Shown piece by piece: positions 7,087-36,030 of a stretch of 54,274 bases of DNA. A program made the translations under genes and the position numbers. Location: assembly GCA_964623735.1 (NCBI GenBank), contig CAZUVE010000001.1, positions 1-54,274 on the forward strand, written 5' to 3'. Under the pieces are notes generated by a model, which saw nothing but the letters and a program-made list of their open reading frames with translations, made no database searches and was not told where the DNA came from. The stretch comes from an uncultured Halobacteriales archaeon. GTDB lineage: Archaea > Halobacteriota > Halobacteria > Halobacteriales > Haloarculaceae. Numbering within the stretch: position 1 is the first letter of the stretch; each line of letters begins with the position of its first letter.

Positions 7087-7244
7087 ATACTGTCGGCTAT
7101 ATAGTGATTGCTGTAACTGTGTACCGGTCTGACCGTACGCTGTCGTGCGGTCGATCCGGTAATGACTTACATCAATCACTATACCGACGTGAAGAGAGCC
7201 GCCACGGGGTGCGACAGTGCGCACGCGCGGAGAGCCGACAGTAT
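7087..7244 (+). repeat. family-A MITE-like repeat with a family-B copy (about 7103..7181) nested inside
   Basis: ATACTGTCGGCTATA | B unit | TACCGACGTGAAGAGAGCCGCCACGGGGTGCGACAGTGCGCACGCGCGGAGAGCCGACAGTAT. Confidence 0.8.
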
Positions 7245-9595: not shown

Positions 9596-9655
9596 CAGGA
9601 TCGACCGCAAGAAGGCATTCGGTCGACCTGATAAACGCTTTCGAACATCCCTATA
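9596..9655 (+). repeat. truncated family-C repeat (right two-thirds only), abutting the permease stop codon
   Basis: ACAGGATCGACCGCAAGAAGGCATTCGGTCGACCTGATAAACGCTTTCGAACATCCCTATA. The left terminal inverted repeat is missing. Confidence 0.7.
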
Positions 9656-9731
9656 CTGTCGGCTATACCGACGTGGAGATAGCCGCCACCTCGGGGTGCG
9701 ACAGTGCGCACACGCGGAGAGCCGACAGTAT
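9654..9731 (+). repeat. family-A repeat
   Basis: ATACTGTCGGCTATACCGACGTGGAGATAGCCGCCACCTCGGGGTGCGACAGTGCGCACACGCGGAGAGCCGACAGTAT. Confidence 0.8.
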
Positions 9732-11654: not shown

Positions 11655-11734
11655 ATACTCCCGGCTGTAAGTCTTTGAAGAATTTCGCCACCCCGGGGTG
11701 GCGAATCTCTTTTCTCAGTTACAGCCGACAGTAT
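11655..11734 (+). repeat. family-A variant (A') repeat
   Basis: ATACTCCCGGCTGTAAGTCTTTGAAGAATTTCGCCACCCCGGGGTGGCGAATCTCTTTTCTCAGTTACAGCCGACAGTAT. A solitary arm CTACAGCCGACAGTGT follows at 11791..11806. Confidence 0.75.
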
Positions 11735-13162: not shown

Positions 13163-13435
13163 TACTGTCGGCTGTAACTGAAAAAAGAGATTCGCCACCC
13201 CGGGGTGGGGGCATATACACCCGGAGGTGACGCTGTCAGGTGCCACGACACCAGATCAGTGAGTTCAGCCCGCGATACTCCGAGTTTGTGACCGGCGGAG
13301 TCGAGCGACTCACCTCCGGGTGGACATCTTCACGTCGGGATATAGGGATGTTCGAAAGTCATTACAGGATCGACCGCAAGAAGGCGTGCGGTCGACCTGG
13401 TAAACGCTTTCGAACATCCCTATAGCCGGCAGTAT
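13162..13435 (+). repeat. composite: family-A' repeat carrying nested family-D (13214..13328) and family-C (13341..13424) copies
   Basis: AATACTGTCGGCTGTAACTG...CCACCCCGGGGTGG | D unit | CTTCACGTCGGGA | C unit | GCCGGCAGTAT. The right end overlaps the stop codon of the oxygenase gene by 1 nt. Confidence 0.8.
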
Positions 13436-14922
13436 CACTCCGCCGGTTTCGCCCGGAGTTCGGGGAAATACCGGCCGTGGAAATCGAACGGGGCCGCGTG
13501 CGGGAGCGTGACGCGCGCCCGCTCCTCGAAGCGCTCGCCGTCGAGGACGAGCAGTCGAGAGCGGTCGGCCTCGGCGTCCAGGGCAACCGTCAGTACGACA
13601 CCGGCGTCCTCGGCGTCGTCCGGTCCCGGCACGAAAATCGGCTCGCCGAAGTAATCACCACCCCGGTCGACCTCGGCCACGCCGCCGGTCTCCGTGTCGT
13701 ACTTCAGTACGCCGGTTGCCCACTCGGTCGCTGGCTGCTCCATGCTCATCGCGTAGACGTACCGGTGTGGCCGGCACCACCGCGCCGGCGAGACGGTCGG
13801 CAGTGCGGTGCCGTCGTCGTACAGCATCTCCCGGCTCACAGTCGCGTCGTCGGTGTCGTATCGGGCTTTCCGCGTCGCCCCACCGAGGTCGATTGTGAAC
13901 CGTTCGAGGCGCCCGGCGATGGCGTCCAGGTTCCCGTTCCGGAGGCTGTCGAGAGAGAGCTCGGTGATGGCCGTCGCGTCCGGGATGGTCTCGATATCGA
14001 GGACCACCTCCGTGCCGCCGTCGCGCTCGAAGGCGTTGACGTGGTGAAATCCGAACACCGCGTCCGTGACCGCGTCGGCTCTCACCTCACCGCTCGTCCG
14101 GTCGACGACGATCATCCGCGTCCCGCGGTCGGGCTGCCACTCGAACTGCTCGATGAACGGGCCCTGTCGCCCCGGTTTGAGGAAGTTCAGTGGGTCGACC
14201 CGGAGCGGGAACTCCGTGAGGCCGACGTACCGCGGTGTCAGTGCGAAACTGTGCATGTACGCCGGCCTGTCCGTCTCGACGCTGCCGATGTGTCGTCGCT
14301 CGCCGTCGTCTTTCAGCGCGTGGACGTGGTACCTGCTGGTTCGACCGAAAGACGTCTCGACGTTGAACAGCGTTCCGGTCGCGGGGTCGCGTTTCAGGTG
14401 TGCACAGGCCAGCTGGCCGGCAGGCTCCGACCCGTCGTACTGGAAATGTCCCTCGACTGCGAAACTGTTCGGGTCCACCACGACCGCTCGCGGCGACTCG
14501 GTCAGCGCGAGATAGCGCTCTCCCACCCGTTCGACGATGATGTTGGTATTGTCGTACGGTGCGGTCAACAACCCTGCGAGTCGCTCCCGGAGTGTCGTCT
14601 CGCCGGTCGCGAACCCGCCGTCGAACTTCCCTCTCTGTGCCTCCTCGTAGGCGTCGGTCCTGAGGAACGCGTTCCGGTAGTGGACGGCGTCGTCGGCCCC
14701 GCTGACGTCGCCACCTGCCCGATTTCCGGGATCGAACGTCGACCGGTAACACATTGCCAGCCCGTCGAACCAGTGGTCGACACTGTCTCCGTCGGAAAGC
14801 GAGAAACTTCCGGGGCCGTTGCGTATGAGACTGCCAGTCAGCCACTCGGGCAACGATCCCTCGACCGCGAGTGACGCCGTTCGCTCCTCGTCCAGCGAGT
14901 GAAACCCGTGGGCAGATGCCAT
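13435..14922 (-). CDS. carotenoid cleavage oxygenase (RPE65/CCD family)
   Basis: 495 aa from MASAHGFHSL. Contains GSLPEWLTGSLIRNGPG, DHWFDG, FGFHHVNAFE and FHGRYF motifs of the family. The ORF-track start 15225 runs into a repeat, so it was trimmed to ATG 14922. Confidence 0.85.
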   Translation of the reverse strand: MASAHGFHSLDEERTASLAVEGSLPEWLTGSLIRNGPGSFSLSDGDSVDHWFDGLAMCYRSTFDPGNRAGGDVSGADDAVHYRNAFLRTDAYEEAQRGKFDGGFATGETTLRERLAGLLTAPYDNTNIIVERVGERYLALTESPRAVVVDPNSFAVEGHFQYDGSEPAGQLACAHLKRDPATGTLFNVETSFGRTSRYHVHALKDDGERRHIGSVETDRPAYMHSFALTPRYVGLTEFPLRVDPLNFLKPGRQGPFIEQFEWQPDRGTRMIVVDRTSGEVRADAVTDAVFGFHHVNAFERDGGTEVVLDIETIPDATAITELSLDSLRNGNLDAIAGRLERFTIDLGGATRKARYDTDDATVSREMLYDDGTALPTVSPARWCRPHRYVYAMSMEQPATEWATGVLKYDTETGGVAEVDRGGDYFGEPIFVPGPDDAEDAGVVLTVALDAEADRSRLLVLDGERFEERARVTLPHAAPFDFHGRYFPELRAKPAE

Positions 14923-15852: not shown

Positions 15853-16004
15853 CACTGGTCGTCAGTTCCGGATTGCCGACGACAGTGTGCGGTCGTACCG
15901 GGGGACAGTCACAGCACTCCGTATCATACTGTCGGCTATAAGCGCGTGAGCACTGTCGGCACCCCGGGTGGGGAATATCTTCACGTCGGTATAGCCGACA
16001 GTAT
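15853..16004. repeat. family-B (15853..15923) followed by family-A (15926..16004)
   Basis: The A copy is ATACTGTCGGCTATAAGCGCGTGAGCACTGTCGGCACCCCGGGTGGGGAATATCTTCACGTCGGTATAGCCGACAGTAT. Its end touches the stop codon of gene 16004..16879. Confidence 0.8.
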
Positions 16005-19149: not shown

Positions 19150-19226
19150 TCCTGTCGGCTATAACTATTTGAAGATATTCCCCACCCGGGGTGCCGACAG
19201 TGCTCACGCGCTTATAGCCGACAGTA
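19150..19226 (+). repeat. family-A repeat, directly after the stop codon of 18910..19149
   Basis: TCCTGTCGGCTATAACTATTTGAAGATATTCCCCACCCGGGGTGCCGACAGTGCTCACGCGCTTATAGCCGACAGTA. Confidence 0.8.
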
Positions 19227-21636: not shown

Positions 21637-21716
21637 ATACTGTCGGTTATAACTACGTGAAGATATTCTGCACCCCGGAGTGCCGACAGTGCTCACGCGC
21701 TTATAGCCGACAGTAT
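21637..21716 (+). repeat. family-A repeat
   Basis: ATACTGTCGGTTATAACTACGTGAAGATATTCTGCACCCCGGAGTGCCGACAGTGCTCACGCGCTTATAGCCGACAGTAT. Confidence 0.85.
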
Positions 21717-22084: not shown

Positions 22085-23041
22085 ATGAGTACACGTAGTG
22101 GGCCACTCGCTTCGACGAGGTCCGCCACCCTAGCTCAGCGCCTGCGGCCAATCTTGGAGACACTGTTCGATTGGCTCACGCTTGAGCCCATCTGGCGGGC
22201 GTACCGCCGTGCGGGGACCAGAGGAGCCGTTGCGGTGGCGGTCGGGCTATGGTTTATCTGGCTGATGATCGTGTCCGTGCCGCTGGCCGTCGTCGGCGGG
22301 TTGCTCGAATTAGCCGGTGTCGTTCAGAGTGCCGGTGATGCCATTGTGGCACCGGTGGTTTTATTGGCAACTGCAATTACATTATACGGCGCGTACAACG
22401 CCTACCGGTTCATCGACGATCGGGGGACGGTGTACGAGTACCGCCAGAATCTCGATACACAGAAGGCCGGCGACTGTTTCGACTATCTAGATTCGGGGGA
22501 TGCCGTCACACGCGGGATTGCCTCGGCGGCCATCGCCGATGCGATGGGACAGATTGACGACGTAGACCCAGTATTGAAACAGGCCGGGTTGGACAAGGAA
22601 GCGGTTGCATTCAAACTGGTCGATCTATTCCATGATGATAACGATGACGTACGGCGCAACGCCAGCGAGGCAGTCGCATACTTATCTCGTGACTACCCGC
22701 TGACCATCGCCCCGTACCGCGACGATGTCTTTGCGGCCATGACCTACCCCGACTCGGTGATTCAGACGAACGCAGCCATCGTCGGGGGAAACATGGCTGC
22801 TATCGAGCCCCGATTGTCTGATGAAGTCGTCGACAATCTCGAGCCGCTCATCGCTGATGAGGACCCAGAGGTCCGGCAGGGGATGGCGATGGCACTAAGC
22901 CTGATTCACACAGACCGGGCCCGGAAGCTGTTAGAACAGCTCGCCAGCGACTCCAACGCCGATGTCCGCAACACGGCGACCGAGGCCCGCGAACAGCAGG
23001 AGCAAGGACGCCCCCTTGACATTGACGTCGAATCCGCATGA
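22085..23041 (+). CDS. membrane-anchored HEAT-repeat protein (paralog 1)
   Basis: Two N-terminal helices (AVAVAVGLWFIWLMIVSVPLAVVGG, VAPVVLLATAITLYGAY). HEAT/PBS-lyase-like repeats follow (DDNDDVRRNASEAVAYLSRDYP, DEDPEVRQGMAMALS, SDSNADVRNTATEA). Confidence 0.75.
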   Translation: MSTRSGPLASTRSATLAQRLRPILETLFDWLTLEPIWRAYRRAGTRGAVAVAVGLWFIWLMIVSVPLAVVGGLLELAGVVQSAGDAIVAPVVLLATAITLYGAYNAYRFIDDRGTVYEYRQNLDTQKAGDCFDYLDSGDAVTRGIASAAIADAMGQIDDVDPVLKQAGLDKEAVAFKLVDLFHDDNDDVRRNASEAVAYLSRDYPLTIAPYRDDVFAAMTYPDSVIQTNAAIVGGNMAAIEPRLSDEVVDNLEPLIADEDPEVRQGMAMALSLIHTDRARKLLEQLASDSNADVRNTATEAREQQEQGRPLDIDVESA

Positions 23042-23122
23042 GGTTGATGTTCAGACATCACACCCAACCAACCGGTCGGTTGCATCGTGCGCTAAGTAGT
23101 TGCGCCGCCACTCAACCCAGTC

Positions 23123-23983
23123 ATGGATGAGCGTATCGCCCGGCTGGCCGCCGTCGAAAGCGACACCGGTCGGGGCCGTGCCACCGACATCCTCATCGAC
23201 ATCGTCAAAGAGGCCCGCGACCAGGTCGGTGTTGCTGGAATCGCAGTGTCAGTTGCGGTGTTGTATTTCGGCTCGTACTTTCTGTTGGCAGCCATGTTCG
23301 GCGTGGCCAGCAGCGTCATCGGCGAGACGGTGGGACTTCTCGCCGGACTGGTTGCACTTGCATACACGAGTTGGGTAGGGTTCACCGCCTACGAGGAATC
23401 GACTGACAGAGAGCGAGCCCGCATCATCCAGTCCCGGCCATCGATCGACACCATCGAGGAAGCGTTCGACCTGCTGACGAGTCCGGACCCGGAGGCTCGT
23501 GAGCACGCGGCCGCATGCGTCCGTGAGGTCACCGCCCTCGGGCCACAGAAGGTGATCTCGATATTGGGCGCCTCTGCAGAGGACGTGGTGTCGTATCTTA
23601 TTCCGCGACTGGATTCCGACCAGGAAGCCGTCCGGGCGAGCATCGCCAGCGCCATCGCGTTCTTCGCTCGTGACTACCCGGCAGCGGTTGTCCCACACCG
23701 GGAGACACTGCTGTCGCGGGTCACTGCCGACGGCATCAGCCCAGAGGTCCGGGGGGAACTCGCGATGACCGTTGGGTACCTCTCGCTGACCCGCGGCGGC
23801 GAGACCGAGACACTCGAGGAGGTCGGATTCGAACTCGCCGATCACTCCACTCCTCAGGTGCGAATCGGGGCCTGCTACATGCTGGCGGGCGCCCAGACCG
23901 ATAGAGCGCGGGAACGGATCCGCAAGATTGCCGAGGACGACCCTGATACGGAGGTGCGAAACCATGCTGAGGAGCTGTACTGA
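23123..23983 (+). CDS. membrane-anchored HEAT-repeat protein (paralog 2)
   Basis: Same architecture as paralog 1, and shares the ARDYP and TDRAR...DDPDTEVRNHA blocks with 22085..23041. Confidence 0.75.
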   Translation: MDERIARLAAVESDTGRGRATDILIDIVKEARDQVGVAGIAVSVAVLYFGSYFLLAAMFGVASSVIGETVGLLAGLVALAYTSWVGFTAYEESTDRERARIIQSRPSIDTIEEAFDLLTSPDPEAREHAAACVREVTALGPQKVISILGASAEDVVSYLIPRLDSDQEAVRASIASAIAFFARDYPAAVVPHRETLLSRVTADGISPEVRGELAMTVGYLSLTRGGETETLEEVGFELADHSTPQVRIGACYMLAGAQTDRARERIRKIAEDDPDTEVRNHAEELY

Positions 23984-24022
23984 CCACACGCAGTGTTCCG
24001 AGAGGCCCGAGGAGGTGACAAA

Positions 24023-25330
24023 ATGAGCACTGCCGGGGAGTTCTCGTCACCGAACGTCGAAGCCAAAGACTACTACGAGCGGCTCGGGGTCCCTGAGGAC
24101 GCCAGCGCTGAGGACGTCGCCAACCACACCAAAAAATACGTCGCGCAATTCAAACCGGAGCTGTCGGACCACGACAACGCCGACGAACGGTGGGATCGGT
24201 TCAACGACGCTCGCCAAACGCTCAACGGGGCCGAGACCAAAGAGGAGTACGACACGTTTCGTGAGCGGTTCGGGCCACAGGATGGGGCCGAGGCGTACGA
24301 GGCCTGGGAGGCCCGTGACAGACCTGGGGACCCGGCGACACTTGACCCTGCCCGCCAACTCGACCGGCCGTCGATCGGTAAAGAGGGTACTGCCACCTCC
24401 GATGAGGAGCCGGCCGAGAGCCAGACATCCAGCAGACAGAGTGATGACCGCCAGCAGCGCCGGTCCCGAGAGCGCACACGGCAGACGTCCGAGGCCGAAC
24501 GCGAGCGCCGCCGCAGAGAGCGCCAGCGGCGTCGTCGCGAAGCCGACATCGACCTCGACTCCTCGAAGGCCCACTCGACCCGTAACGTCGACAGGGACGA
24601 TGAGGAAGACGACGAGGCCACCGAGGAACCGGCCAGCCAGTCGACGGCACGGCAGGTGCTCAGCCACTTCCGGGAGTCCGGCCGGGTCGCGACGCGCGAG
24701 GCCGCGACCGCTCTCGAGGTGCTGGAACTGGCGGTCGTCGGCTACATCATATACGCCCTCATCGTCCAGTTCGGCGCAGCCAGCGTGGCCGACGCGGCCG
24801 GAACCGTCATCGTCCAAGACATCGCGACTGTCGGCGTGGTTCTCGGCGTCGGGTTCGTCCTCGTCAGCCGGTATCTTCAGCGGTTCGGGACTGATCCGGC
24901 CAACCCAGACGGTCGGCCGTCGCCGGGCCGGCAACTTATTCGCGACAGCGACACCCCGACGTGGTTCGTGTACGGCCCGGCAGTCGCTGGTGTACTGTTC
25001 GCCGGTCTGCTCCCGCTGGGCGGGGGCGGTACGACGCTGTTGTTCGTCGGACTGGCAATGCTGTTCACATACGGACGGTACCGGGTGGTGGCCGAACTGG
25101 TACCCACGCCGGACTGGAGCGAGTACGTCGACATCGCCGGTGGAGCCGGCGCCGCAGTACTGTTCATCGCTATCTTTGTGCTGTCGGCGCCCGGCGCAGG
25201 GGTTGAGGCAGATGTCGCGACCTCCGGGCCGGCGGTCGCCATTGTCGTGGTTGCGCTCATAGCCGCCATCGTTGCCATCCCATCGGTCGCTCTCTGGTTG
25301 GGCGCTCGGGAGGAGGCCGAGGCCGCTTGA
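24023..25330 (+). CDS. polytopic membrane protein with N-terminal J-like domain (HPD replaced by KPE)
   Basis: DYYERLGVPEDASAEDV...KKYVAQFKPELSDHDNADERWDRFNDARQTL...EYD aligns with J-domain helices I-IV. An R/E/D-rich linker and about 5 C-terminal helices follow. GGAGGTGA lies 5 nt upstream of ATG 24023. Confidence 0.75.
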   Translation: MSTAGEFSSPNVEAKDYYERLGVPEDASAEDVANHTKKYVAQFKPELSDHDNADERWDRFNDARQTLNGAETKEEYDTFRERFGPQDGAEAYEAWEARDRPGDPATLDPARQLDRPSIGKEGTATSDEEPAESQTSSRQSDDRQQRRSRERTRQTSEAERERRRRERQRRRREADIDLDSSKAHSTRNVDRDDEEDDEATEEPASQSTARQVLSHFRESGRVATREAATALEVLELAVVGYIIYALIVQFGAASVADAAGTVIVQDIATVGVVLGVGFVLVSRYLQRFGTDPANPDGRPSPGRQLIRDSDTPTWFVYGPAVAGVLFAGLLPLGGGGTTLLFVGLAMLFTYGRYRVVAELVPTPDWSEYVDIAGGAGAAVLFIAIFVLSAPGAGVEADVATSGPAVAIVVVALIAAIVAIPSVALWLGAREEAEAA

Positions 25331-25439
25331 GAGTCTGCCCATCCAGAGGACCAGAGACTCTACTGGCACAACAGTTAATCTAACCAATACCGTATGAAAT
25401 AAAAAATGCCGGACCGGAAATCGTCACGGACGAAACGGA

Positions 25440-25790
25440 ACGTGCCTGCAGGGAATCACCCAACTCGAGGCCTCCTACGACGAAGGGCTAGCCGACGCCA
25501 TCGTCGCTGGGGCGACACAGGAGATCCTCATGCGGCCGGGGGACAACGAATCACTCGAGCATATCCAGCAGGCGATCGGCTCTACTATCATCGAACATGA
25601 AGAGGAAGCCCCGGGGTTCGGTCAGCGCAACGTCAAACAGGAGGAACAGGACTACCTTTCGGATCGCGAGATCCGTCAGTTCCAGACCGGTGAGGCAATC
25701 GTCCGATCGCCGGACGGGTTCGCTCACGGCCGAGTCAAGCCCTGGGAGCATCTCTCCAGCCGCGAGAAAGCCAAACTCACCGGTGACTGA
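25440..25790 (+). pseudogene. C-terminal remnant of a TraD/VirD4-like (type IV coupling protein) gene
   Basis: LQGITQLEASYDEGLADAIVAGATQEILMRPGDNESLEHIQQAIG...DYLSDREIRQFQTGEAIVRSPDG matches the conserved C-terminal blocks of coupling ATPases. No N-terminal ATPase part is present. Confidence 0.55.
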
Positions 25791-25862
25791 CCATCGCATG
25801 ACAGACACTCATCGTGGGCCGACACACCGACACCGGACTGAGAACCACCATCAGCAACACCA

Positions 25863-27224
25863 ATGACATCGGGTACCGACGACCCGGACGACGACGGACC
25901 GAGCAACAATCAATCGGACCGCGCCTCAGAGGACCAGCCCGAGGTTGACCGAGCCGATAGCGCCGAGACAGAGGGGGCGACCGATTCCGATGCCGAGGCG
26001 GCGGACGCTCTGGACGACATCGACGGTCCTCCGGAGTCCAAGACGACAGCCGCAGAACAGGCAGGCTCAGCCGATGATCACCCGACCGACGCGGCCGAGC
26101 AGACGCCCGCCGAGGCGGATATGACAGAGGACATGAGAGAGGCCGAGGCTGCCGAGGAGCCGGCCGCCGAGGCCGACACCGACAGCACGAGCGACGCCGA
26201 AGCCACGGACCCCGAATCTGAGTCTGAGCCCAGCGCTGACTCCGAGGTCACAGCGGTCGACAGTCAGGACACCGAGAGCGGGTCGGGCGAGAAGACCAGC
26301 GCGAGCGATGACGACGCCTCCTCAGTCGATGCTGACGCTGCTGAGGAGGGCGACGGAAAAGAGGAGCCGGCCACAGAGGCCGATACCGACGACGAGGGAA
26401 CCGGCGCCGACCACCGGTCCGAGACGGCGAAGACCGAGGAGCCGGATGCTGCCGATGACGGCGGTGACGACACGATGGCCGGTCGTGACCCGGCGGATCT
26501 AACGCCGGACGAGGTGGAGGTCACTCGTCCCGACGAGTTCGAGTTCAGGTACCTCCCCAAAGACCGCCTCCCTCCGGATCTCCAGTACACCCCGGAGTTC
26601 GATCCCGACTGGGTGTACCCATCCGGAACAAAAGACGGTGGCACGCAGGACGACGTCCCAGTCCAAGGCCTCGAGACCGGCGTGTTGGCAACCGAGGATA
26701 CCCTCGAAGCGATCGTTGAGGCCGTCCTCGAGGCGCTCGAACTGTATCACGACGCTGTCGGAGAGTATCCACGCCACCGCATCGTCGACTCCGCGGCCAC
26801 GTTCCGCGACCTGAACGACGGGAGCGTCGGGCTTGCAGTCGTCTTCCAGCCTCGGCCGGACGACTACGACGGCCTCACAGACCATATGACTGCGCTGACA
26901 GCGGGTGATTCCGGAGCCGTCGACGGGAACTACGACCGAGCCCGCCGCCTCGTACAGTACCTCGTCGGATCGCTCACACACCGTGAACTGGCGGCGCTGC
27001 CGGGCGCAGAGGATGTGGAACTGGAGGCGGTCACCGACTGGGAATCGCCACGACGGGTCGGCACCACCCCCATCGTCGAGCGATACGGCCCGTTGGCTGC
27101 AGAGGAGGTGTACGACCCGACAGCGGGACCGGTCGATATCTCCACCGATGGGGTCGCCAGCGTGACGGAGACCAATATTTCGCCGACGTATCTCGATATC
27201 AACCATGTGGAGGAACTGTTCTGA
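25863..27224 (+). CDS. protein with ~200-aa extremely acidic low-complexity N-terminus and a ~250-aa globular C-terminal domain of unknown family
   Basis: 453-aa ORF. The D/E/A/T-rich region spans about 25863..26470. The C-terminal part has normal composition, and I recognised no motifs in it. Confidence 0.65.
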   Translation: MTSGTDDPDDDGPSNNQSDRASEDQPEVDRADSAETEGATDSDAEAADALDDIDGPPESKTTAAEQAGSADDHPTDAAEQTPAEADMTEDMREAEAAEEPAAEADTDSTSDAEATDPESESEPSADSEVTAVDSQDTESGSGEKTSASDDDASSVDADAAEEGDGKEEPATEADTDDEGTGADHRSETAKTEEPDAADDGGDDTMAGRDPADLTPDEVEVTRPDEFEFRYLPKDRLPPDLQYTPEFDPDWVYPSGTKDGGTQDDVPVQGLETGVLATEDTLEAIVEAVLEALELYHDAVGEYPRHRIVDSAATFRDLNDGSVGLAVVFQPRPDDYDGLTDHMTALTAGDSGAVDGNYDRARRLVQYLVGSLTHRELAALPGAEDVELEAVTDWESPRRVGTTPIVERYGPLAAEEVYDPTAGPVDISTDGVASVTETNISPTYLDINHVEELF

Positions 27225-27305
27225 TCCGCCCCGCCGGACGTCACCACCTGAGGGTCGCCGTCCGGACCCGTGGCAGCGGTCGCCAGCAGCATCGGCACAG
27301 GAACT

Positions 27306-28058
27306 ATGTCTGTCGCCACGGTGGTCCGACCCATGACTGACGACGGCGAGCGGTTCGTCCGGCTCAGCAACCGGGCCAGGGACGGCGAACCGGTCGACGA
27401 AGGGGACATCCGAGCTGTGTTTGACGCTGTCTTAACGGAAGATATGGGGGCCGCTAGAGCGCTGCAGACCATCGCCGAAAACGATCCCGACCGGTTGGCG
27501 GCGTACACCGACGACATCCAGGCGGCGTTCGAGGCGTGTTCGGACGGCACCGTCCGAAGCAATCTGTATACGGTGCTCAAAGAGGTCAGCGCTGTCCGGC
27601 CGACCCTCCCGTTCGAGGTGGCCGACGAACTAGTCAGAACAATCCGTCAGGGCGACCCGCTGCTGGCCGCCGAGGCGATTGCAGCGCTGACGGCGTCGGT
27701 CAAGGCAGGCCAGACCCTCCCGGAGGAGTTCGTCCAAGAGGTGTTCTACCGAGTGGGGCGGTCACCGAACGACTACGTGATGTCCGTCGGCGGGGAGTTC
27801 CTTCGGACGGTCGTCGAAGCCGGTGGTGACAACGCGGTCCCAGCATTCGAGGCGTTCGGCGTCCTCCTCGCGGAAGACCAGTCCGATATGACGATCGTGC
27901 TGGGGCAGGTGCTCGTGGACCTGCTGTTGGAGTCGCCCGAGGCAGTGCCAGCAGACGCCGACACGGACGTGGTGCGGGAGGCACTGGCTCAGCGGCGTGA
28001 GGAAACCGGACTCCCGGACGACGAACTGACGACGGCACTCGAGACGCTCGAGGCGTGA
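27306..28058 (+). CDS. soluble all-helical HEAT/ARM-like repeat protein
   Basis: AENDPDRLAAYTDDIQAAF...DGTVRSNLYTVLKEV...GDPLLAAEAIAALTASV helical-repeat periodicity. The stop overlaps the next start (GTGA at 28055-28058). The start could instead be GTG 27270. Confidence 0.6.
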   Translation: MSVATVVRPMTDDGERFVRLSNRARDGEPVDEGDIRAVFDAVLTEDMGAARALQTIAENDPDRLAAYTDDIQAAFEACSDGTVRSNLYTVLKEVSAVRPTLPFEVADELVRTIRQGDPLLAAEAIAALTASVKAGQTLPEEFVQEVFYRVGRSPNDYVMSVGGEFLRTVVEAGGDNAVPAFEAFGVLLAEDQSDMTIVLGQVLVDLLLESPEAVPADADTDVVREALAQRREETGLPDDELTTALETLEA

Positions 28059-28612
28059 CCACCTGTAGCTGTGGCACCGAACAGAAGGAAGTCGACCGCG
28101 AGAGCACGGTGCGACAGTACGTCGACCGGTTCAGTTTCTCGGACCTCTCGCTGAACAAGAAGACCGAGGTAAAGAACCCGTTCCGTCCGAGCGCGCTCTA
28201 CGAACTGGCTACAGCGCCGAATGCCCGGGCGGACATCGAGGGTCCCAGCCTCGAAATAGAGCGCTCCGAGGACACCTTCTGCCCGAACTTCGCCGAGCAT
28301 CAGGAGGCGTACGACCGACTCGTCGCCCAGGCGGAACTGATCGAGGCCGCGACCCAGAATGTACCCGCCGCGGAGGTCGAGACCGCAGTCGACGTCGAGA
28401 TGGTCCGCTCGAAGATCGAGCACCTCCCCTCGCAGGTGCCCAACCTCTCAGAGGCAGAGCTCGAACAGCTCCAAGACGAGCTGACCGCTATGCAGGCGTC
28501 GCTGTCGGGGCGGCTCGAACAACTCGAGGGCAGCCAACCGGCGACGCTCCGGGAGTCGCTCGGCGGGTCTAACCGAGCCCAGCGACTGATACTGTCGGCT
28601 ATAACTTCGTGA
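28055..28612 (+). CDS. module-1 ORF of the interrupted gene (terminates in MITE-derived ILSAITS*)
   Basis: TTCSCGTEQKEVDRESTVRQY...EDTFCPNFAEHQEAYDRLV...VDVEMVRSKIEHLPSQV...LTAMQASL...NRAQRL, followed by MITE sequence. Confidence 0.6.
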   Translation: MTTCSCGTEQKEVDRESTVRQYVDRFSFSDLSLNKKTEVKNPFRPSALYELATAPNARADIEGPSLEIERSEDTFCPNFAEHQEAYDRLVAQAELIEAATQNVPAAEVETAVDVEMVRSKIEHLPSQVPNLSEAELEQLQDELTAMQASLSGRLEQLEGSQPATLRESLGGSNRAQRLILSAITS

Positions 28613-28668
28613 AGATATTCGCCACCCCGGGGTGCCGACAGTGCTCACGCGCTTATAGCCGACAGTAT
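28589..28668 (+). mobile_element. family-A MITE-like insertion inside the coding sequence
   Basis: AT-ACTGTCGGCTATAACTTCGTGAAGATATTCGCCACCCCGGGGTGCCGACAGTGCTCACGCGCTTATAGCCGACAGT-AT. 28589..28666 is 78 nt (26 codons) with one in-frame TGA at 28610. Confidence 0.85.
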
Positions 28669-29452
28669 GAACAATCTGCAAGAGCAGACACAACGGATCC
28701 TGGACAACCATATCGCCGAGGAGATCGATCTCCGCCAGCAACAGGCCCGGCAGGACGCTCCCGCCAGTCCAGCGGAAGACACCGCACCGGATGGTTCGAA
28801 AGAACAGGTCGACGAGCAACCGACGGCGTCGCCGGCAGAACCGCCGCCGTGTGACACGTGTGGGCGGGAGGAGGTCCGCGTCGAGCGCCAGACCACGGTC
28901 CGACAGGTCCAGTCGGATCTGGAGTTCCGAAAGCTCAGTTTCGCAGGGTCGGTCACCCCCGGACTGTTCGACAACGAGGGGTCGCTTGACCCGAGTCTGG
29001 ATGGCGGCCCGAGCGTCGAGACGACCGCGACACTCAAGGGCAACGAGGACACGTTCTGCGGGAACTTCGCGGGTGACGAAGACGCCTACGAGGCACTCGT
29101 CCACGATATAAAGGCGACCGACAGGCTCGCCGACCGATACGGGCCGGGGGAGCATCTCGAGGACAACATCGACATCGAGATGCTCCGGTCGAAGGTCGAG
29201 CATCTCCGGACGCAGGTGCGAGACCTCTCGACCGAGAAGCTGACTACGCTCAAAGAAGAACTCACAGCGATGCAGGAGTCAGTGGCCGCCCGGGTCGGGG
29301 ACCTCCGGACCAATCAGCGGTGGGCGAAGCTCCGTGACGACCTCGGGGTCTCGTCGCGCATCCAGCGGCTCCGAGACCTGCAGACCCAGGCCCAGAAGTT
29401 CGTGGACAACCACATCACCACTGAACTCATACTGTCGGCTATAACTACGTGA
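28667..29452 (+). CDS. module-2 ORF of the interrupted gene
   Basis: The ATG lies at the MITE/flank junction. Sequence is PPCDTCGREEVRVERQTTVRQV...EDTFCGNFAGDEDAYEALV...IDIEMLRSKVEHLRTQV...LTAMQESV...SRIQRL...NHITTEL, followed by MITE-derived ILSAITT*. Confidence 0.6.
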   Translation: MNNLQEQTQRILDNHIAEEIDLRQQQARQDAPASPAEDTAPDGSKEQVDEQPTASPAEPPPCDTCGREEVRVERQTTVRQVQSDLEFRKLSFAGSVTPGLFDNEGSLDPSLDGGPSVETTATLKGNEDTFCGNFAGDEDAYEALVHDIKATDRLADRYGPGEHLEDNIDIEMLRSKVEHLRTQVRDLSTEKLTTLKEELTAMQESVAARVGDLRTNQRWAKLRDDLGVSSRIQRLRDLQTQAQKFVDNHITTELILSAITT

Positions 29453-29508
29453 AGATATTCCCCAGTCCGGGGTGTCGATACTGCTCACGCGCTTATAGCC
29501 GACAGTAT
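29429..29508 (+). mobile_element. family-A MITE-like insertion inside the coding sequence
   Basis: AT-ACTGTCGGCTATAACTACGTGAAGATATTCCCCAGTCCGGGGTGTCGATACTGCTCACGCGCTTATAGCCGACAGT-AT, with an in-frame TGA at 29450. Confidence 0.85.
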
Positions 29509-29698
29509 CAGCGAGCGCCAGCAGCAGGCACAGCGAGCCCCCGGCGATCAACGACCCGGCCAGGGCGGCACCGACCCCGAGACTAGCCCCACGGCAGTTC
29601 CCGATGAGACCGAACCGGGCCAGCAGGCCCAAGCCAGTCCGGACGCGACCGGGAAAACGGACCAGTCGCCGACCGACTGCGAGCGCTGCGAGGAGGAG

Positions 29699-30805
29699 AT
29701 GGCCCGCGTCCGCCGCGAGGGGCGTGTCCGGCAGTTCGCCGAAGAGATGGAGCTTCGAGAACTCAACGTCGGGGTCTCGGTGGATATCGTCACCCAATCG
29801 CCCACGCCGAAGGCGAACCCGAAGTTCGAGCGCCGGCCCGATCGGTTTTGCAAAAACTTCGACGGCGACGAGAATGCGCTGGATGCACTCAAGCATGACG
29901 TCCAGCGGGTCACCACCGTTGCTCGAAACAACGCAGGCGGGGAATTCGTCGAAGACGTCGTCGACGTCGAGATGGTCCGGTCGAAGCTGGAGACGTTGCC
30001 GGAGTCCGTCGAAGGGCTCTCCGAGCAGAATCTGAGAGACCTCCGAGGATCACTCGCCGAAATGCGCGACCGGCTGGCCGAGCGGATACAGGACCTCCGA
30101 GACAGTCAGCGACGGAAACTGGAGCAGTTACGGGAGAAGCTAAACCTCTCCTTGCGGCTCGAACGTCTCGAGAACCTGAAAGAGCAGGCCGTCGAGGTCA
30201 TCGACCAGCACCTCGATCCCGAACTGGACCGTCGCCAACAGCCGGGTACCAACTCCGACGACGATCCATCGAGCAGTCCGAGCAGCGGTGGGCCAGAGAC
30301 CGGACCCGACAGCAGGCCCAGTTCCGGCTCCGGTACTGAGTCGGGCTCAGACGGTGGCTCGGGTACCGGAAGCAGGAGTGGTAACGATGGGGCCAACGGT
30401 GGCACTGGGGCTACCGGGAGCGATGGAACTAGCGGCGCCAGCGGATCGAGCGGGAGCAGCGACAGTAGCGGTAGCGCCACGACTGACGATGGCACAGGCG
30501 CGGACGGAACGGACAGCGGGGGGACCGGCGAGGATACCGAGCCCGACGCCGATGAGAGCGGTGACGGCTGGGGGACCGGTGAGCAGGACGGCACCCCCGA
30601 CGGTGCGGACTCCGAGCCCGACCGTGACGTCGATGACGAACCCGGCAACGACCGGTCTGAAAAGGAAGAACGAGACCGACGAGGCGAACCCGACGAAGAG
30701 GGTCCCGACGAGGACGAGGACGAGAACGAGCGCGAAGCCGAAGAACCTCATCAGGACGACGAACCCGAGGCGGACACCGAACCAGATCACGGCCCGATGT
30801 TATAA
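29699..30805 (+). CDS. module-3 ORF plus long G/S/D/E-rich tail (first ATG lies after the module's CxxC)
   Basis: The frame is open from 29453 (…ISERQQQ…TDCERCEEEMARVRREGRVRQF…), but no ATG/GTG/TTG precedes 29699. Downstream are RFCKNFDGDENALDAL, VDVEMVRSKLETLPESV and LAEMRDRL. Confidence 0.55.
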   Translation: MARVRREGRVRQFAEEMELRELNVGVSVDIVTQSPTPKANPKFERRPDRFCKNFDGDENALDALKHDVQRVTTVARNNAGGEFVEDVVDVEMVRSKLETLPESVEGLSEQNLRDLRGSLAEMRDRLAERIQDLRDSQRRKLEQLREKLNLSLRLERLENLKEQAVEVIDQHLDPELDRRQQPGTNSDDDPSSSPSSGGPETGPDSRPSSGSGTESGSDGGSGTGSRSGNDGANGGTGATGSDGTSGASGSSGSSDSSGSATTDDGTGADGTDSGGTGEDTEPDADESGDGWGTGEQDGTPDGADSEPDRDVDDEPGNDRSEKEERDRRGEPDEEGPDEDEDENEREAEEPHQDDEPEADTEPDHGPML

Positions 30806-30963
30806 GCAGTCGTATGCTCCTGCCGACGAGAAGCGCCGGGAGTCCGTCACTATGACGCGTCGTTGTTCCCGCCGCCGGTCCGTCACCACCGACTGTGGAT
30901 GCCACACTCGGAGGTGGCCAGAGCCGCTACGACGACACAACAGCGTGGTCGTTCCGATACGGG

Positions 30964-32511
30964 TCAGGCGTCCGGCGGGAGTTGTGCATCGGGGTCGCTG
31001 CCCTCCAGTGCGGACTCGATCTCCGCGGTGACCTCTATCCCGCTCAACATGTCCTCGCCATACACCGCTAGAGTGCCGTCGTTGTTGACCGTGAACTCGA
31101 CGGCAAGCGACCCCTGTCCGGGCTCGCGAGGGTCGATCCCCTCCAAAGTGGCCTGGCCGAGGAACTCGTTGTCAGGGGCCTTGTCTGACTCACCCTGGTA
31201 CACTTCGATGGCGACGGTCGTCTGGTTCGGGTCCGCGACGCTGTAGCCCTCCTGTCGCTCGGTGGTCGGCAGTTGAGTGTCGCGTTCGACGATAGGGTCG
31301 AACCGGTCGCCGGGCTGGACCTTGACCCCGATCGACTGCGGGAGAACGTCGATCAGCACCAGGCCCGCCTCCTCGGTCGATTCACCGCTCGGTAGCGCCG
31401 CCTCATCGGCTTCGTCGTCGAGCACGGCCGCCTGGATGGCCGCGCCCATCGCGACCGCGTGGTCGGGACTAATCTCCTTGGAGGGCTCCATCCCGAAGTA
31501 ATCGGTAACCAGTTCTTCGACCTGTGGCATCCGCGTCGACCCCCCGATGAGCAGTACCTTGTCGATGTCCTCGACCGCGTAGTCCGTCCGGTCGAAGATG
31601 TCGTCCATCGGATCGGTGGTTCGGTCAAGGAGGTCCGCCGTCATGTCCTCGAACTGGGCGCGGGTGACCTCCTCGTCGAGGTTGTACGACTGCTCGGGCA
31701 GGACGAACGGCACCGTGAGATTCACCGACTGCTGCTCTGAGAGCTTGTGCTTGGCCTCCTGAGCGGCTTCGAAGATCCGGCCCCGCTGGTCGGCGTAGTC
31801 GGGGTCATCGCTGATGTCGACGCCGGTATCCTCCTCGATGCTGTCGTATGCGAACTGTACGATCGCCTCGGTCCAGTTCGATCCACCGAGTTCGTTGTCG
31901 CCGTCGGTCGCGACCGTCTCGATATAGTTGAACTCGTACTCGGCCTCGACCAGCGTTGCGTCGAACGTGCCCCCGCCGAGGTCGTACACGAACACTATCT
32001 CGTTGTTCACCTCGCCCAGTTGCTGCTCGCGGAATCCGTAGGCCAGCACTGCCGCGCTGGGTTCGGGAAGCAACTTCTCTACGTTCATGCCGGCAAGTTC
32101 GCCGGCCTCTCGAGTGGCGGTCCGTTCCCGATCGGTGAAATACGCCGGCACGGTGATGACCGCGTTGGTAACGTCGGTGCCCAGTCGGTCCTCGGCGTCG
32201 CCCACTAGCTTCTGGAGAATAAGCCCGGACACCTCTTGTGGAGTAAATTCCTCGTCCCCCATCATGACGGTCTCGTTGGTCCCCATGAGCTTCTTGACCT
32301 CCCGAACCGTCCAGTCGGGTTTCATCATCATGTTGTTTACCGCACTCTCTCCCACCAGCGACTCACCTTCCTCGGTCAGATGCACGACCGAGGGGGTGAT
32401 GCCTTTGCCATCGCTGTTATCGATGACGGTCGGCTCCCCGTCGGTGATGTGCGCCATCGCACTGCGAGTCGTCCCAAGGTCTATGCCAATCGTACGCTCG
32501 CCGTTTGACAT
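30964..32511 (-). CDS. Hsp70-family ATPase, lid-less (paralog A)
   Basis: MSNGERTIGIDLGTTRS, VITVPAYFTDRERTATREAGELAGM, EPSAAVLAYG, YDLGGGTFDAT and LIGGSTRMPQV, with a beta-sandwich SBD (IDVLPQSIGV...). The protein ends about 60 aa after SBD-beta, so there is no helical lid and no EEVD. Start trimmed to ATG 32511. Confidence 0.9.
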   Translation of the reverse strand: MSNGERTIGIDLGTTRSAMAHITDGEPTVIDNSDGKGITPSVVHLTEEGESLVGESAVNNMMMKPDWTVREVKKLMGTNETVMMGDEEFTPQEVSGLILQKLVGDAEDRLGTDVTNAVITVPAYFTDRERTATREAGELAGMNVEKLLPEPSAAVLAYGFREQQLGEVNNEIVFVYDLGGGTFDATLVEAEYEFNYIETVATDGDNELGGSNWTEAIVQFAYDSIEEDTGVDISDDPDYADQRGRIFEAAQEAKHKLSEQQSVNLTVPFVLPEQSYNLDEEVTRAQFEDMTADLLDRTTDPMDDIFDRTDYAVEDIDKVLLIGGSTRMPQVEELVTDYFGMEPSKEISPDHAVAMGAAIQAAVLDDEADEAALPSGESTEEAGLVLIDVLPQSIGVKVQPGDRFDPIVERDTQLPTTERQEGYSVADPNQTTVAIEVYQGESDKAPDNEFLGQATLEGIDPREPGQGSLAVEFTVNNDGTLAVYGEDMLSGIEVTAEIESALEGSDPDAQLPPDA

Positions 32512-32593
32512 CAAGATAATACACAGCGGCAGCCACATTAAATCTTGACACCGCGCTGACGTTGCCGAACATCTTATTTTCGTCGCCTTCACA
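32512..32593. promoter_or_regulatory. 82-bp divergent intergenic region of the two Hsp70 genes
   Basis: Relatively AT-rich (TTAAAT, CTTATTTT as TATA-box candidates). A 7-bp inverted repeat TCAAGAT(32511-17)/ATCTTGA(32542-48) is present. Confidence 0.4.
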
Positions 32594-34180
32594 ATGGCAG
32601 ATATGTCGCCAGCGGACGGCACGACCGTCGGCATTGATTTGGGAACGACCAGAACGGCGGTTGCTCATGTGACGAGGGGCACACCGACGTTGCTCGCGAA
32701 TGCCGGGGGGTACAACCTGACGCCCTCTGTCGTGCACGTCCCCCGTGACGGGCCAGCACTCGTCGGCCGTGAAGCCAGCGACCGGCTGCTGATGGAGCCA
32801 GAGCGGACCATCGCGGAGGTCAAACGCCATATGGGCGATGAGACCGAACTGAGTCTTGGACAGTCGACACGCCGCCCTGAGGAACTATCGGCGCTAATAC
32901 TCGAGAAGGTCGTCAACGATGCCGCCGACCGGACCGACACCACTGTCGAGACGGCAGTCATCACCGTACCGGCGTACTTTACCGGACGGCAGCGGACGGC
33001 GACCCGTAACGCGGGTGAGATTGCGGGTCTTCACGTCGATCAGTTGCTACCCGAGCCCAGCGCGGCGGTGCTGGCCTACGGGTACGAACAGCAGAAGCTC
33101 GGGGAGGTTACCGACGAGACGCTGCTGGTGTACGACCTCGGCGGAGGAACGTTCGACGCGACGCTCGTCGAGGCCGAATACGAGCATAACTACATCGAGA
33201 CGGTGTTCACCGAGGGGGACAGCGGGCTCGGCGGGCACGACTGGACGGCCGAGATCGAGGCGTGGGTGGCCGACGAGATCCGTTCCGACACCGGGATCGA
33301 CGTCACCAGTGGGTCGGCCTACGCCGACCAGCGCAACCGCATCCGGTCGGCTGCTCGTGAGGCCAAACACGAACTCGTCGACCAGCAAAAGACCGTGGTA
33401 AATATTCCGTACGTCGTCCCAGAGGAAAACTACCACTTCGAACGCACGATTGATCGGGCACAGTTCCAAGCGATGACCGAGCACCTGCTCGAACAAACCC
33501 GCAAGACCATCGAGACCGTGTTCCACCAGACGGACTACACCACCGCCGACGTCGACACGGTCCTGCTGGTCGGAGGCGCCTCCCGGATGCCACAAGTGGA
33601 GTCGATGCTCCGGTCGTACTTCGGGATGGCACCCTCCAGAGAGGTCCACCCCGACCACGCCGTCGCGATGGGCGCAGCCGTCCAGGCAGCTGTCCTTGAC
33701 GACAGCGTGACCGGCGTCGGCGAGATGCTGTCACATGCCGAGGACGACGGCGCCGGCGCGCCGAGCGGCATCGTCCTCGTGGACGTGCTCCCCCAGACGC
33801 TCGGGGTGGAATTGGACAACGGGCAATTCTCACCGGTCATCGAGCAGGGCGCTCAACTGCCGACGACTGTCCGCAAGGAAAATTTCCAGACGGTACACCC
33901 TGACCAGACCGCGGTCAAGTGGCCGATCCGCCAAGGCGAATCGCCACAGGCCGTCGACAACGACCTCCTCGGGACGGTCTGGATCCGTGACATCCCCCCG
34001 CGAGACCCGGACCGCGATAGCATCGCCGTCGAGTTCACCATGACCTCCGACGGCACGTTGCAGGTAGAGGTCGAAGACCTGATCACGGGCAGGCTGGTCG
34101 ACGCGACGATCGAGTCCGGCATCCGACTCTCCGATGCCGAGATCACGGAAATGAGCGCTGACATCCCAGGGGTGGAGTGA
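32594..34180 (+). CDS. Hsp70-family ATPase, lid-less (paralog B)
   Basis: TVGIDLGTTRT, VITVPAYFTGRQRTATRNAGEIAGL, EPSAAVLAYG, YDLGGGTFDAT, LVGGASRMPQV and VDVLPQTLGV. It ends shortly after SBD-beta. Confidence 0.9.
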   Translation: MADMSPADGTTVGIDLGTTRTAVAHVTRGTPTLLANAGGYNLTPSVVHVPRDGPALVGREASDRLLMEPERTIAEVKRHMGDETELSLGQSTRRPEELSALILEKVVNDAADRTDTTVETAVITVPAYFTGRQRTATRNAGEIAGLHVDQLLPEPSAAVLAYGYEQQKLGEVTDETLLVYDLGGGTFDATLVEAEYEHNYIETVFTEGDSGLGGHDWTAEIEAWVADEIRSDTGIDVTSGSAYADQRNRIRSAAREAKHELVDQQKTVVNIPYVVPEENYHFERTIDRAQFQAMTEHLLEQTRKTIETVFHQTDYTTADVDTVLLVGGASRMPQVESMLRSYFGMAPSREVHPDHAVAMGAAVQAAVLDDSVTGVGEMLSHAEDDGAGAPSGIVLVDVLPQTLGVELDNGQFSPVIEQGAQLPTTVRKENFQTVHPDQTAVKWPIRQGESPQAVDNDLLGTVWIRDIPPRDPDRDSIAVEFTMTSDGTLQVEVEDLITGRLVDATIESGIRLSDAEITEMSADIPGVE

Positions 34181-34671: not shown

Positions 34672-34750
34672 ATACTGTCGGCTATAAGCGCGTGAGCACT
34701 GTCGGCACCCCGGGTGGAGAATATCTTCACGTACTTATAGCCGACAGTAT
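34672..34750 (-). repeat. family-A repeat (reverse orientation)
   Basis: ATACTGTCGGCTATAAGCGCGTGAGCACTGTCGGCACCCCGGGTGGAGAATATCTTCACGTACTTATAGCCGACAGTAT. Confidence 0.85.
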
Positions 34751-35875: not shown

Positions 35876-36030
35876 ATACTGTCGGCTATACCGACGTGAA
35901 GATATTCCCCACCCGGGGTGCCGACAGTGCTCACGCGCTTATAACCGACAGTATGAGTGGTGTACCTGTGTCCCGGGACGACCGTACGCTGTCGTGCGGT
36001 GGATCCGGCAGTGACTTACAGCCGGCAGCA
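35876..36030. repeat. family-A repeat (35876..35954) followed by family-B repeat (35955..36030); a solitary B terminus (CTGCTGTAAGTCA) precedes at 35863..35875
   Basis: ATACTGTCGGCTATACCGACGTGAAGATATTCCCCACCCGGGGTGCCGACAGTGCTCACGCGCTTATAACCGACAGTAT followed by ...GTACCTGTGTCCCGGGACGACCGTACGCTGTCGTGCGGTGGATCCGGCAGTGACTTACAGCC. Confidence 0.75.

Follow-up and report, generated by a model that had tools for sequence, protein, structure and literature searches.

A modular haloarchaeal gene interrupted by two copies of a 78-nt MITE, very probably a recent inactivation in a decaying gene cluster

Three open reading frames on the plus strand of a haloarchaeal contig (28055-28612, 28667-29452 and 29699-30805) are the pieces of one gene into which a non-autonomous 78-nt MITE has inserted twice. 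The case is very probably one of ordinary, recent gene inactivation within a decaying cluster, and not of a split gene maintained by selection. Throughout, "the window" is the whole stretch of DNA that was analyzed, 54,274 nt in length.

One gene and two insertions

The sequence-only reading had proposed a single ancestral multi-module gene cut by two MITEs, and both the four uninterrupted homologues and an empty insertion site in a related contig bear this out. The three ORFs lie in a common frame, as it had stated (start coordinates all equal to 2 modulo 3), and the parts of the interrupted gene are as follows.

28055-28589, plus strand: fragment 1 of the ancestral gene, carrying module 1 as far as ...NRAQRL
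28587-28589, plus strand: left target-site duplication (TSD) copy of insertion 1, TGA, out of frame, the last 3 nt of fragment 1
28590-28667, plus strand: MITE copy 1, 78 nt, source of the in-frame TGA at 28610-28612
28668-28670, plus strand: right TSD copy of insertion 1, TGA; with the A at 28667 that ends MITE copy 1 it makes ATG 28667-28669, the start of the second ORF
28671-29429, plus strand: fragment 2 of the ancestral gene, comprising the final helix of module 1 (NNLQEQTQRILDNHI...RQQQ), a linker and module 2
29427-29429, plus strand: left TSD copy of insertion 2, TCA, the last 3 nt of fragment 2
29430-29507, plus strand: MITE copy 2, 78 nt, in the same orientation as copy 1, with an in-frame TGA at 29450-29452
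29508-29510, plus strand: right TSD copy of insertion 2, TCA
29511-30805, plus strand: fragment 3 of the ancestral gene, the end of module 2 (SERQQQ), a linker, module 3 and an acidic tail

The GTG start of fragment 1 overlaps the stop codon of the upstream gene (GTGA), and the N-terminus of this fragment, MTTCSCGTEQKE, matches the homologue P0001. Within fragment 2, module 2 begins at 28841 and runs up to ...DNHITTEL; module 3 occupies 29669-30247 with its CxxC at 29678-29689, and the acidic tail, rich in Gly, Ser, Asp and Glu, ends in GPML before the stop codon at 30803-30805. The insert-derived peptides, each with one TGA as had been read from the DNA, are I-LSAITS, stop, RYSPPRGADSAHALIADS-M for copy 1 and I-LSAITT, stop, RYSPVRGVDTAHALIADS-I for copy 2. 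After the second TGA, 82 codons of the third piece go by without a start codon; the earliest is ATG 29699, which lies, as previously observed, downstream of the CxxC of module 3.

Excision of both MITEs in silico gives an ORF of 862 codons with no further stop or frameshift. Removing 81 nt at each site joins QRL to NNLQEQ and TTEL to SERQQQ in the register seen in the other modules and in the homologues, and it is only by removing 81 nt that the exact module register and the homologue length are restored. A 683-aa query comprising the three modules, with the acidic tail left out, aligned over 99-100% of its length to P0001, P0002 and P0003 (45-64% identity; single uninterrupted ORFs of 823-1138 aa). 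An exhaustive profile search added P0004 (789 aa) and, beyond these four proteins, returned nothing but the window's own 261-aa fragment; the MITE inserts are absent from all four homologues, each of which is one uninterrupted ORF (789-1138 aa), as the earlier reading would have it. The contig L001, about 80% identical in DNA to the window at 22.6-32 kb, supplies the empty site for insertion 2: it reads GAACTCA followed directly by GCACC where the window has GAACTCA[78 nt]TCAGCG, so that a single TCA is present and the gap is exactly 81 nt.

The 78-nt element and its family

The 78-nt repeat is a true MITE: it is short, has terminal inverted repeats (TIRs) and a fixed TSD, leaves an empty site in a relative and occurs in many copies. 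Its TIRs (TACTGTCGGCTATAA / TTATAGCCGACAGTA) are complementary at 15/15 nt in copies 1 and 2, copy 1 folds into a hairpin (dG -39.4 kcal/mol, z -5.7), and the element lacks a transposase gene, the longest possible reading frame being 25-26 codons. Of the initial description of a 78-nt repeat flanked by AT, the length stands and the flanks do not, the latter being 3-bp TSDs (TGA and TCA). The net gain per insertion is the element plus its TNA duplication, 81 nt; every insertion of the 78-nt form therefore keeps the frame, and the argument that a 1-in-9 chance of two frame-preserving insertions hints at selection falls.

The 14-nt end of the MITE is matched 22 times in the window against 0.07 expected, and at least 11 copies or variants of the family are present. 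Those outside the gene span 7088-35953, and every one of them lies between genes:

~7088-7243, intergenic: MITE variant, composite
9654-9730, intergenic: MITE copy or variant
11656-11733, intergenic: MITE copy or variant
13163-13434, intergenic: MITE variant, composite
15927-16003, intergenic: MITE copy or variant
19150-19226, intergenic: MITE copy or variant
21638-21715, intergenic: MITE copy or variant
34673-34749, intergenic: MITE copy or variant
35877-35953, intergenic: MITE copy or variant

Beyond the window, 94 MITE stretches were found in metagenomes, and 71 of the 85 paired copies are 78 nt long. A perfect TNA duplication accompanies 78 of these 85, with TGA (43 copies) and TCA (26) prevailing over TAA (5) and TTA (4); of the roughly 89 copies whose duplication is perfect, just one more was found to lie clearly inside a gene. 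Related copies, with 72-80% identity over the full element, are carried on plasmids of Haloarcula, Halomicrobium, Natribaculum, Halobellus and Haloplanus.

Prokaryotic MITEs include SM1-SM4 of Sulfolobus, those of Haloquadratum and other haloarchaea, and the Correia elements of Neisseria; the 78-nt element resembles them in being short, non-coding and multicopy, with perfect TIRs, a hairpin and a fixed TSD, and in being mostly intergenic and occasionally gene-disrupting. Correia and IS630-type elements duplicate TA, whereas the element described here duplicates a 3-bp TNA, mostly TGA or TCA. Duplications of 3-bp TNA are a property of the IS1031 group of the IS5 family (the related PIF/Harbinger elements duplicate TWA), and with its TSD of this type and TIRs of about 15 nt the MITE may, as a lead only, be related to that group; in contrast to IS1031-group elements, no autonomous transposon or transposase gene with the MITE ends turned up in the window, in viral contigs or at any of about 100 metagenomic copies.

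The Rickettsia palindromic elements (RPEs) are palindromic repeats inserted in frame in protein genes and translated. Like them, the MITE gives a net insertion that is a multiple of three, and it keeps an open frame in each direction (115 of 122 translations of unique copies), more often than shuffled controls predict. On the metagenome contig L101, moreover, an intact XPB-like helicase ORF runs through a MITE copy in its open frame; the copy is translated as a 27-aa insert. When the peptide encoded by the element was used in a profile search, only hypothetical ORFs of 41-88 aa and no large proteins were retrieved, so that translated copies look rare and not a habit of the family. Unlike RPEs, both copies in the modular gene sit in a stop-containing frame and shorten the protein where an RPE would lengthen it; an RPE-like translated repeat was consequently rejected for this gene, since both copies introduce a TGA.

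A rare modular protein and a cluster with a second lesion

The protein consists of three tandem modules of ~200 aa followed by the acidic tail. Each module has a Cx1-2C...FCxNF part and then a predicted helical bundle, and it is within the last helix of this bundle that both insertion breaks lie. That the modules are homologous, as had been claimed from the letters, holds under alignment statistics (module 3 against module 2, BLASTP E = 4e-38 and 35% identity; against module 1, E = 2e-22), with a module length of about 190-220 aa and not the ~170 aa first estimated. In an alignment of 14 modules the invariant positions are C4, C7, R16, R21, F60, C61, N63, F64, K106, R166, L167, L170 and H181. 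The protein is rare, and no curated family of sequences or structures matched it significantly: Pfam gave sub-threshold coiled-coil noise only, NCBIfam no match, PADLOC weak coiled-coil matches only, and Foldseek against the PDB no fold match (best E = 0.35).

The gene belongs to a conserved cluster that encodes two HEAT proteins, a DnaJ-like protein, a TraG/VirD4-like ATPase, two further proteins, the modular protein and two Hsp70s. In the window its other members are:

22085-23041, plus strand: HEAT-repeat protein, apparently intact
23123-23983, plus strand: HEAT-repeat protein, apparently intact
23993-25330, plus strand: DnaJ-domain protein, apparently intact (Pfam DnaJ, 1.6e-07)
25406-25790, plus strand: TraG/TrwB/VirD4-like ATPase remnant with a base-level junction
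25863-27224, plus strand: acidic 453-aa conserved partner
27270-28058, plus strand: 262-aa conserved partner, with a 4-nt overlap with the start of the modular gene, as in relatives
30964-32634, minus strand: Hsp70-family gene of a divergent pair
32594-34180, plus strand: Hsp70-family gene of a divergent pair

Each of the four contigs that encode a homologue has the same partner genes, with another order on L007. The Hsp70 pair adjoins the modular gene in L002 too, the only one of these contigs on which the second Hsp70 gene is seen, because the others end too early. As in Hsp70/DnaJ systems and TraG/VirD4 coupling ATPases, the neighbours match HSP70 (Pfam E 1e-116 to 1e-132 for the window genes), DnaJ and TrwB/TraG-D_C; by contrast with such systems, the window Hsp70s fall below the NCBIfam DnaK cut-offs, which makes them paralogues, and the modular protein is without a family match.

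The ATPase gene is the second casualty. An out-of-frame junction now joins its original start and 13 codons (25406-25444) to its last 114 codons (25446-25790), and ~1.3 kb present in relatives, whose ATPase matches TraD/VirD4 models, has been deleted in the window; the remnant still matches TraG-D_C and TrwB.

Inactivation weighed against continued use

We propose that one ancestral gene encoded the protein of three modules and an acidic tail, and that the MITE entered it twice, mobilized by a transposase that would have been supplied in trans and would cut and duplicate a TNA target, each event adding 81 nt. As the frame hit here carries one TGA, translation of the ancestral protein would stop at 28610-28612, and any downstream restart would stop again at 29450-29452, leaving a recent pseudogene. 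The ATPase may have been lost first, by the out-of-frame 1.3-kb deletion, and the two intragenic copies were probably retained because selection had thereby been relaxed. Several observations count against this account: the remaining cluster genes (both HEAT proteins, the DnaJ-like protein, the two further proteins and both Hsp70s) are intact, the search for an autonomous transposon with the MITE ends came up empty, and the MITE-excised ORF is otherwise free of decay, which would be equally expected if the pieces were still used. Of the three options that the sequence-only reading had offered, recent inactivation is favoured, in part by the loss of the ATPase and the lack of a start over 82 codons, and neither a split gene nor readthrough is.

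It is improbable that the gene is still used as two or three polypeptides restarting at 28667 and 29699, with the split tolerated or selected. The in-frame ATG at 28667, only 55 nt past the first TGA, would suit such use, as would the absence of any other lesion across the 862 codons and a dN/dS of 0.20-0.37 against L001 in all three fragments. The position of this ATG at the MITE boundary had been correctly reported, but it is an automatic by-product of the element's final A and a TGA duplication, the latter shared by 43 metagenomic copies, just as the frame is kept automatically by an insertion of 81 nt. The dN/dS values mostly reflect the time before insertion, and fit an inactivation that is recent relative to the divergence of the window from L001. 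Moreover, the first break takes the last helix off the predicted bundle of module 1, the third piece would lose its CxxC, four of four homologues are single ORFs and the cluster ATPase is destroyed. Haloarchaea are often able to initiate translation without a Shine-Dalgarno sequence, and the boundary ATG may yield some re-initiation product. A broader form of the same idea, in which the MITE family is built to survive inside genes in the manner of RPEs and the modular gene is still expressed as split polypeptides restarted at the MITE-borne ATG, draws on the 81-nt net gain, the excess of stop-free frames and the helicase with its translated 27-residue insert; we regard it as similarly improbable.

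That the insertions are assembly artefacts, i.e. repeat-induced mis-joins, is very unlikely. That the window makes up a whole NCBI contig points to a draft or metagenome-assembled genome, and the element is multicopy within the same genome; however, the flanks of each copy run on collinear with the orthologous gene, a perfect 3-bp duplication of local sequence accompanies each copy (TGA and TCA, respectively), and the copies differ from one another at 7/78 positions and from every other copy found at 5 or more. Least probable of all is readthrough or bypass of the TGA codons to give a single long protein that would contain both inserts of 27 residues: for all that there is one stop per insert, that the frame is preserved and that the L101 helicase carries a translated insert, the L101 copy sits in a different frame without any stop, no recoding signal was identified and Rfam finds nothing in the region, ribosome hopping would find no matched pair of take-off and landing codons in the sequence, and the use of selenocysteine or pyrrolysine is not known in haloarchaea.

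Given recent inactivation as the preferred reading, annotation should merge the three ORFs into one MITE-disrupted pseudogene and record the TraG-like remnant as a second, without calling any of them a new small gene. None of these findings overturns current understanding; the rule of the MITE family (78 nt, TNA duplication, net 81 nt) explains why reading frames continue across its copies, and it makes such disruptions recognizable, and open to repair in silico, in other genomes of haloarchaea. The work also uncovers a very rare conserved cluster, in which two Hsp70s, a DnaJ-like protein, two HEAT proteins and a VirD4-like ATPase accompany a modular Cys/helical-bundle protein.

A three-module gene interrupted twice

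Three ORFs in one reading frame make up the interrupted modular gene:

28055-28612, + strand: fragment 1, in the same frame as fragments 2 and 3
28667-29452, + strand: fragment 2, in the same frame as fragments 1 and 3
29699-30805, + strand: fragment 3, in the same frame as fragments 1 and 2

The module in each ORF is marked by the motifs Cx1-2C, RQ, FCxNF, (V/I)D(V/I)E(M/R)(V/L)RSK, L(T/A)(A/E)M, RLxxL and (N/Q)H(I/L). The sequence-only reading had placed a homologous module in each of three same-frame ORFs; the frame was confirmed, and the similarity between modules stands under alignment statistics (BLASTP E = 4e-38 and 2e-22). It had also taken both breaks for copies of one repeat, and these are indeed identical at 71 of 78 positions, with unrelated flanks. 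Excising each copy together with one copy of its flanking duplication (81 nt) gives an uninterrupted ORF of 862 codons with no further lesion, and the module motifs come into register only with an 81-nt excision: the joints then read QRL-NNLQEQ and TTEL-SERQQQ, and uninterrupted modules have QRL-RDLQTQ and PEL-DRRQQ at the matching positions.

The three-module part (683 aa) was used as the query against 5.8 billion proteins, and three homologues cover 99-100% of it:

P0001: 1138 aa, 64% identity, contig L001
P0002: 1103 aa
P0003: 823 aa, 'Candidatus Halobonum' MAG

Profile searching with HMMER, run exhaustively over 1.84 billion representatives, turned up P0004 (789 aa) as the only further homologue besides the 261-aa fragment of the window itself; scans with the module profile returned only the 'Candidatus Halobonum' MAG already found (L002) from the genome collection, and no relative from the JGI metagenomes. 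All four homologues are single ORFs of three or four modules without an insert. L001 shares ~80% DNA identity with the window over the surrounding gene cluster, and where the window has the second insertion, L001 shows one TCA and lacks exactly 81 nt, a classical empty site. The proposal of one ancestral gene cut by two insertions is thus borne out by the 862-codon ORF, by the four uninterrupted homologues and by the empty site.

Module number across the family is 3 to 4. Module 1 of the window (28055-28744) is chimeric when compared with residues 1-485 of the four-module P0001, its N-terminal half resembling P0001 module 1 and its C-terminal half module 2; the two halves meet at the conserved VD(I/V)EMVR(S/T)K motif, which indicates that one module was lost through in-frame recombination between the repeats. 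The AlphaFold model of one module (mean pLDDT 70) has a confident helical bundle at residues 60-190 and an unconfident N-terminal part containing the CxxC cysteines. We could not identify a significant neighbor of this model in the PDB, nor any real match for the modular protein in Pfam, NCBIfam or PADLOC, the last giving no defense-system assignment.

The window is a haloarchaeal chromosome fragment, given its high G+C content (55-72% in 2-kb windows; ~62-66% around the modular gene), its acidic proteins and its typical chromosomal genes, which include those for A-type ATP synthase subunit D, arginyl-tRNA synthetase, UvdE, and bacterio-opsin-activator-like and HalX regulators. Among the PLSDB plasmids, megablast found nothing that matched the locus. 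Rfam returned a single tRNA and nothing else for the whole window, and the inserted repeat is without an Rfam match.

The inserted repeat is a MITE

The ends of the repeat were defined by comparing the flanks of all full window copies, two plasmid copies and 85 paired metagenomic copies. Its first bases are TACTGTCGGCTATAA and its last TTATAGCCGACAGTA, and 71 of the 85 paired metagenomic copies have a length of 78 nt. On either side lies a directly duplicated 3-base target, which conforms to TNA in 78 of the 85 (TGA 43, TCA 26, TAA 5, TTA 4). The target duplications in the modular gene are:

28587-89 and 28668-70: TGA, flanking copy 1 (28590-28667)
29427-29 and 29508-10: TCA, flanking copy 2 (29430-29507)

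The predicted fold of the repeat is an almost perfect hairpin (dG -36 to -43 kcal/mol, z ~-6), its 14-nt end has 22 matches in the window against 0.07 expected, and relatives with 72-80% identity over the full element are found on plasmids of Haloarcula, Halomicrobium, Natribaculum, Halobellus and Haloplanus. Inverted-repeat ends, the 3-bp TNA duplication, the hairpin and the dispersed copies make it a MITE on every testable criterion. A bulge-helix-bulge intron was ruled out, the fold showing no such motif but an unbroken 15-bp stem that has a symmetric 3x3 loop, as was a 2-bp TA duplication, which is incompatible with the 81-nt gap at the empty site.

No autonomous insertion sequence with MITE ends was found in a scan of viral contigs for the MITE end or among metagenomic copies without an apparent right end. 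The viral scan gave 22 single matches, none with a convincing partner end, and 20 of them, on contigs of 28-47% G+C, looked like chance. Of the ten metagenomic copies seemingly without a right end, eight are MITEs of the ordinary kind whose ends have degenerated, and two had no candidate right end. Judging by the 3-bp TNA duplication, the MITE may be moved by an IS5-type (IS1031-group) transposase.

The nine other copies or variants in the window all lie between genes, and among ~89 copies with perfect duplications we found one other that is clearly intragenic; selection evidently removes intragenic insertions. Copies in the window all lie within its first 36 kb (~55-67% G+C), and the last 18 kb (~66-72% G+C, housekeeping genes) are free of them. 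Two elements are composite, at 7088-7243 (154 nt) and 13163-13434 (270 nt), which suggests that MITEs from more than one family are nested or combined as hybrids there. Twice a copy coincides exactly with the TGA stop of a gene, the stop being the duplicated target: at window 13163-13437, where a minus-strand RPE65-like gene ends at 13435, and at L008:1501-1586 on a Halomicrobium urmianum plasmid, where a universal stress protein CDS ends at L008:1504. Insertion on stop codons may explain both the bias toward TGA and TCA targets and the harmlessness of most copies. Dating the insertions by copy divergence was dropped; the copies form a diverse set, with a median of 8 differences from the consensus, and their private differences have no timing value.

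Reading frames across the inserted copies

In each orientation the MITE has one open frame, one with one stop and one with two, and both copies in the modular gene fall in the one-stop frame, each supplying one TGA (28610-12 and 29450-52) at which translation would end. That the gene now yields functional split polypeptides is unlikely. The sequence-only reading had set the odds of two frame-preserving insertions at 1 in 9 and saw in this a hint of tolerance or selection; the coincidence vanishes because the 78-nt form nets 81 nt and always keeps the frame. The ATG that it placed at the MITE boundary is present (28667), formed by the MITE's last A and the TG of the TGA duplication, but it arises with any right-hand TGA duplication and is no sign of selection. 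Further against split products, break 1 cuts off the last helix of the helical bundle predicted for module 1, break 2 falls where the last helix of module 2 ends (AlphaFold model), and the first start codon downstream of the second TGA comes only after 82 codons.

It is equally improbable that genes would tolerate this MITE family as they do the Rickettsia palindromic elements. In favor of this, one copy, flanked by a TCA duplication, is found within the gene for an XPB/Rad25-like helicase on a metagenome contig (L101:1893-1970; Ga0207797_1026193), and the ORF (497 aa) stays intact because the MITE sits in it in the open frame, adding 27 residues to the Helicase_C domain (element peptide TVGYKRVKSFDTPWCRNPLRSYSQQ). 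The metagenomes and the window together supplied 80 copies of 78 nt, of which 61 are unique; frame +1 contains no stop in 115 of the 122 translations that the unique copies give, both orientations counted, against 96 +/- 4 under substitution resampling and 110 +/- 2 under column shuffling (p ~0.016), controls that model neither hairpin constraints nor the common ancestry of the copies; selection against stops in this frame is a weak hint, confounded by both. Against it, a profile search with the encoded peptide, doubled to meet a 40-aa minimum, yielded only hypothetical ORFs of 41-88 aa. An assembly artefact is highly unlikely as the source of the insertions, and readthrough or bypass of their TGA codons is less likely still.

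The gene cluster and the loss of its ATPase

The homologues lie in a conserved cluster encoding two HEAT-repeat proteins, a DnaJ-domain protein, a TraG/TrwB/VirD4-like ATPase, the modular protein and Hsp70-family proteins, as well as an acidic ~400-aa protein and a ~240-aa protein, the stop of the latter gene overlapping the start of the modular gene. Both Hsp70-family genes are visible only on L002; the contigs L001 and L003 break off within the first one, and gene order on L007 is different. The cluster is very rare, with five loci in all the collections searched (window 22085-34180, L001, L002, L003 and L007). In the window the ATPase gene, whose relatives encode 556-572 aa, has a ~1.3-kb internal deletion and, as its sequence reads, is destroyed:

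25406-25790: ATPase remnant, start codon plus 13 codons (25406-25444) joined out of frame to the last 114 codons (25446-25790)

We consider it very probable that the modular gene was recently inactivated by two MITE insertions in this decaying cluster. Loss of the ATPase may have come first and relaxed selection on the modular gene; a transposase acting in trans would then have put the MITE into the TGA and TCA targets whose duplications it left, and at best truncated pieces with broken modules would be made. The dN/dS values against L001 are 0.20-0.37 in all three fragments; these values and the lack of any additional lesion indicate that inactivation is recent relative to the divergence from L001. 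Gene disruption by a MITE is a known kind of event, and two insertions in one 2.6-kb gene beside a deleted partner gene are as expected of a cluster that would no longer be needed.
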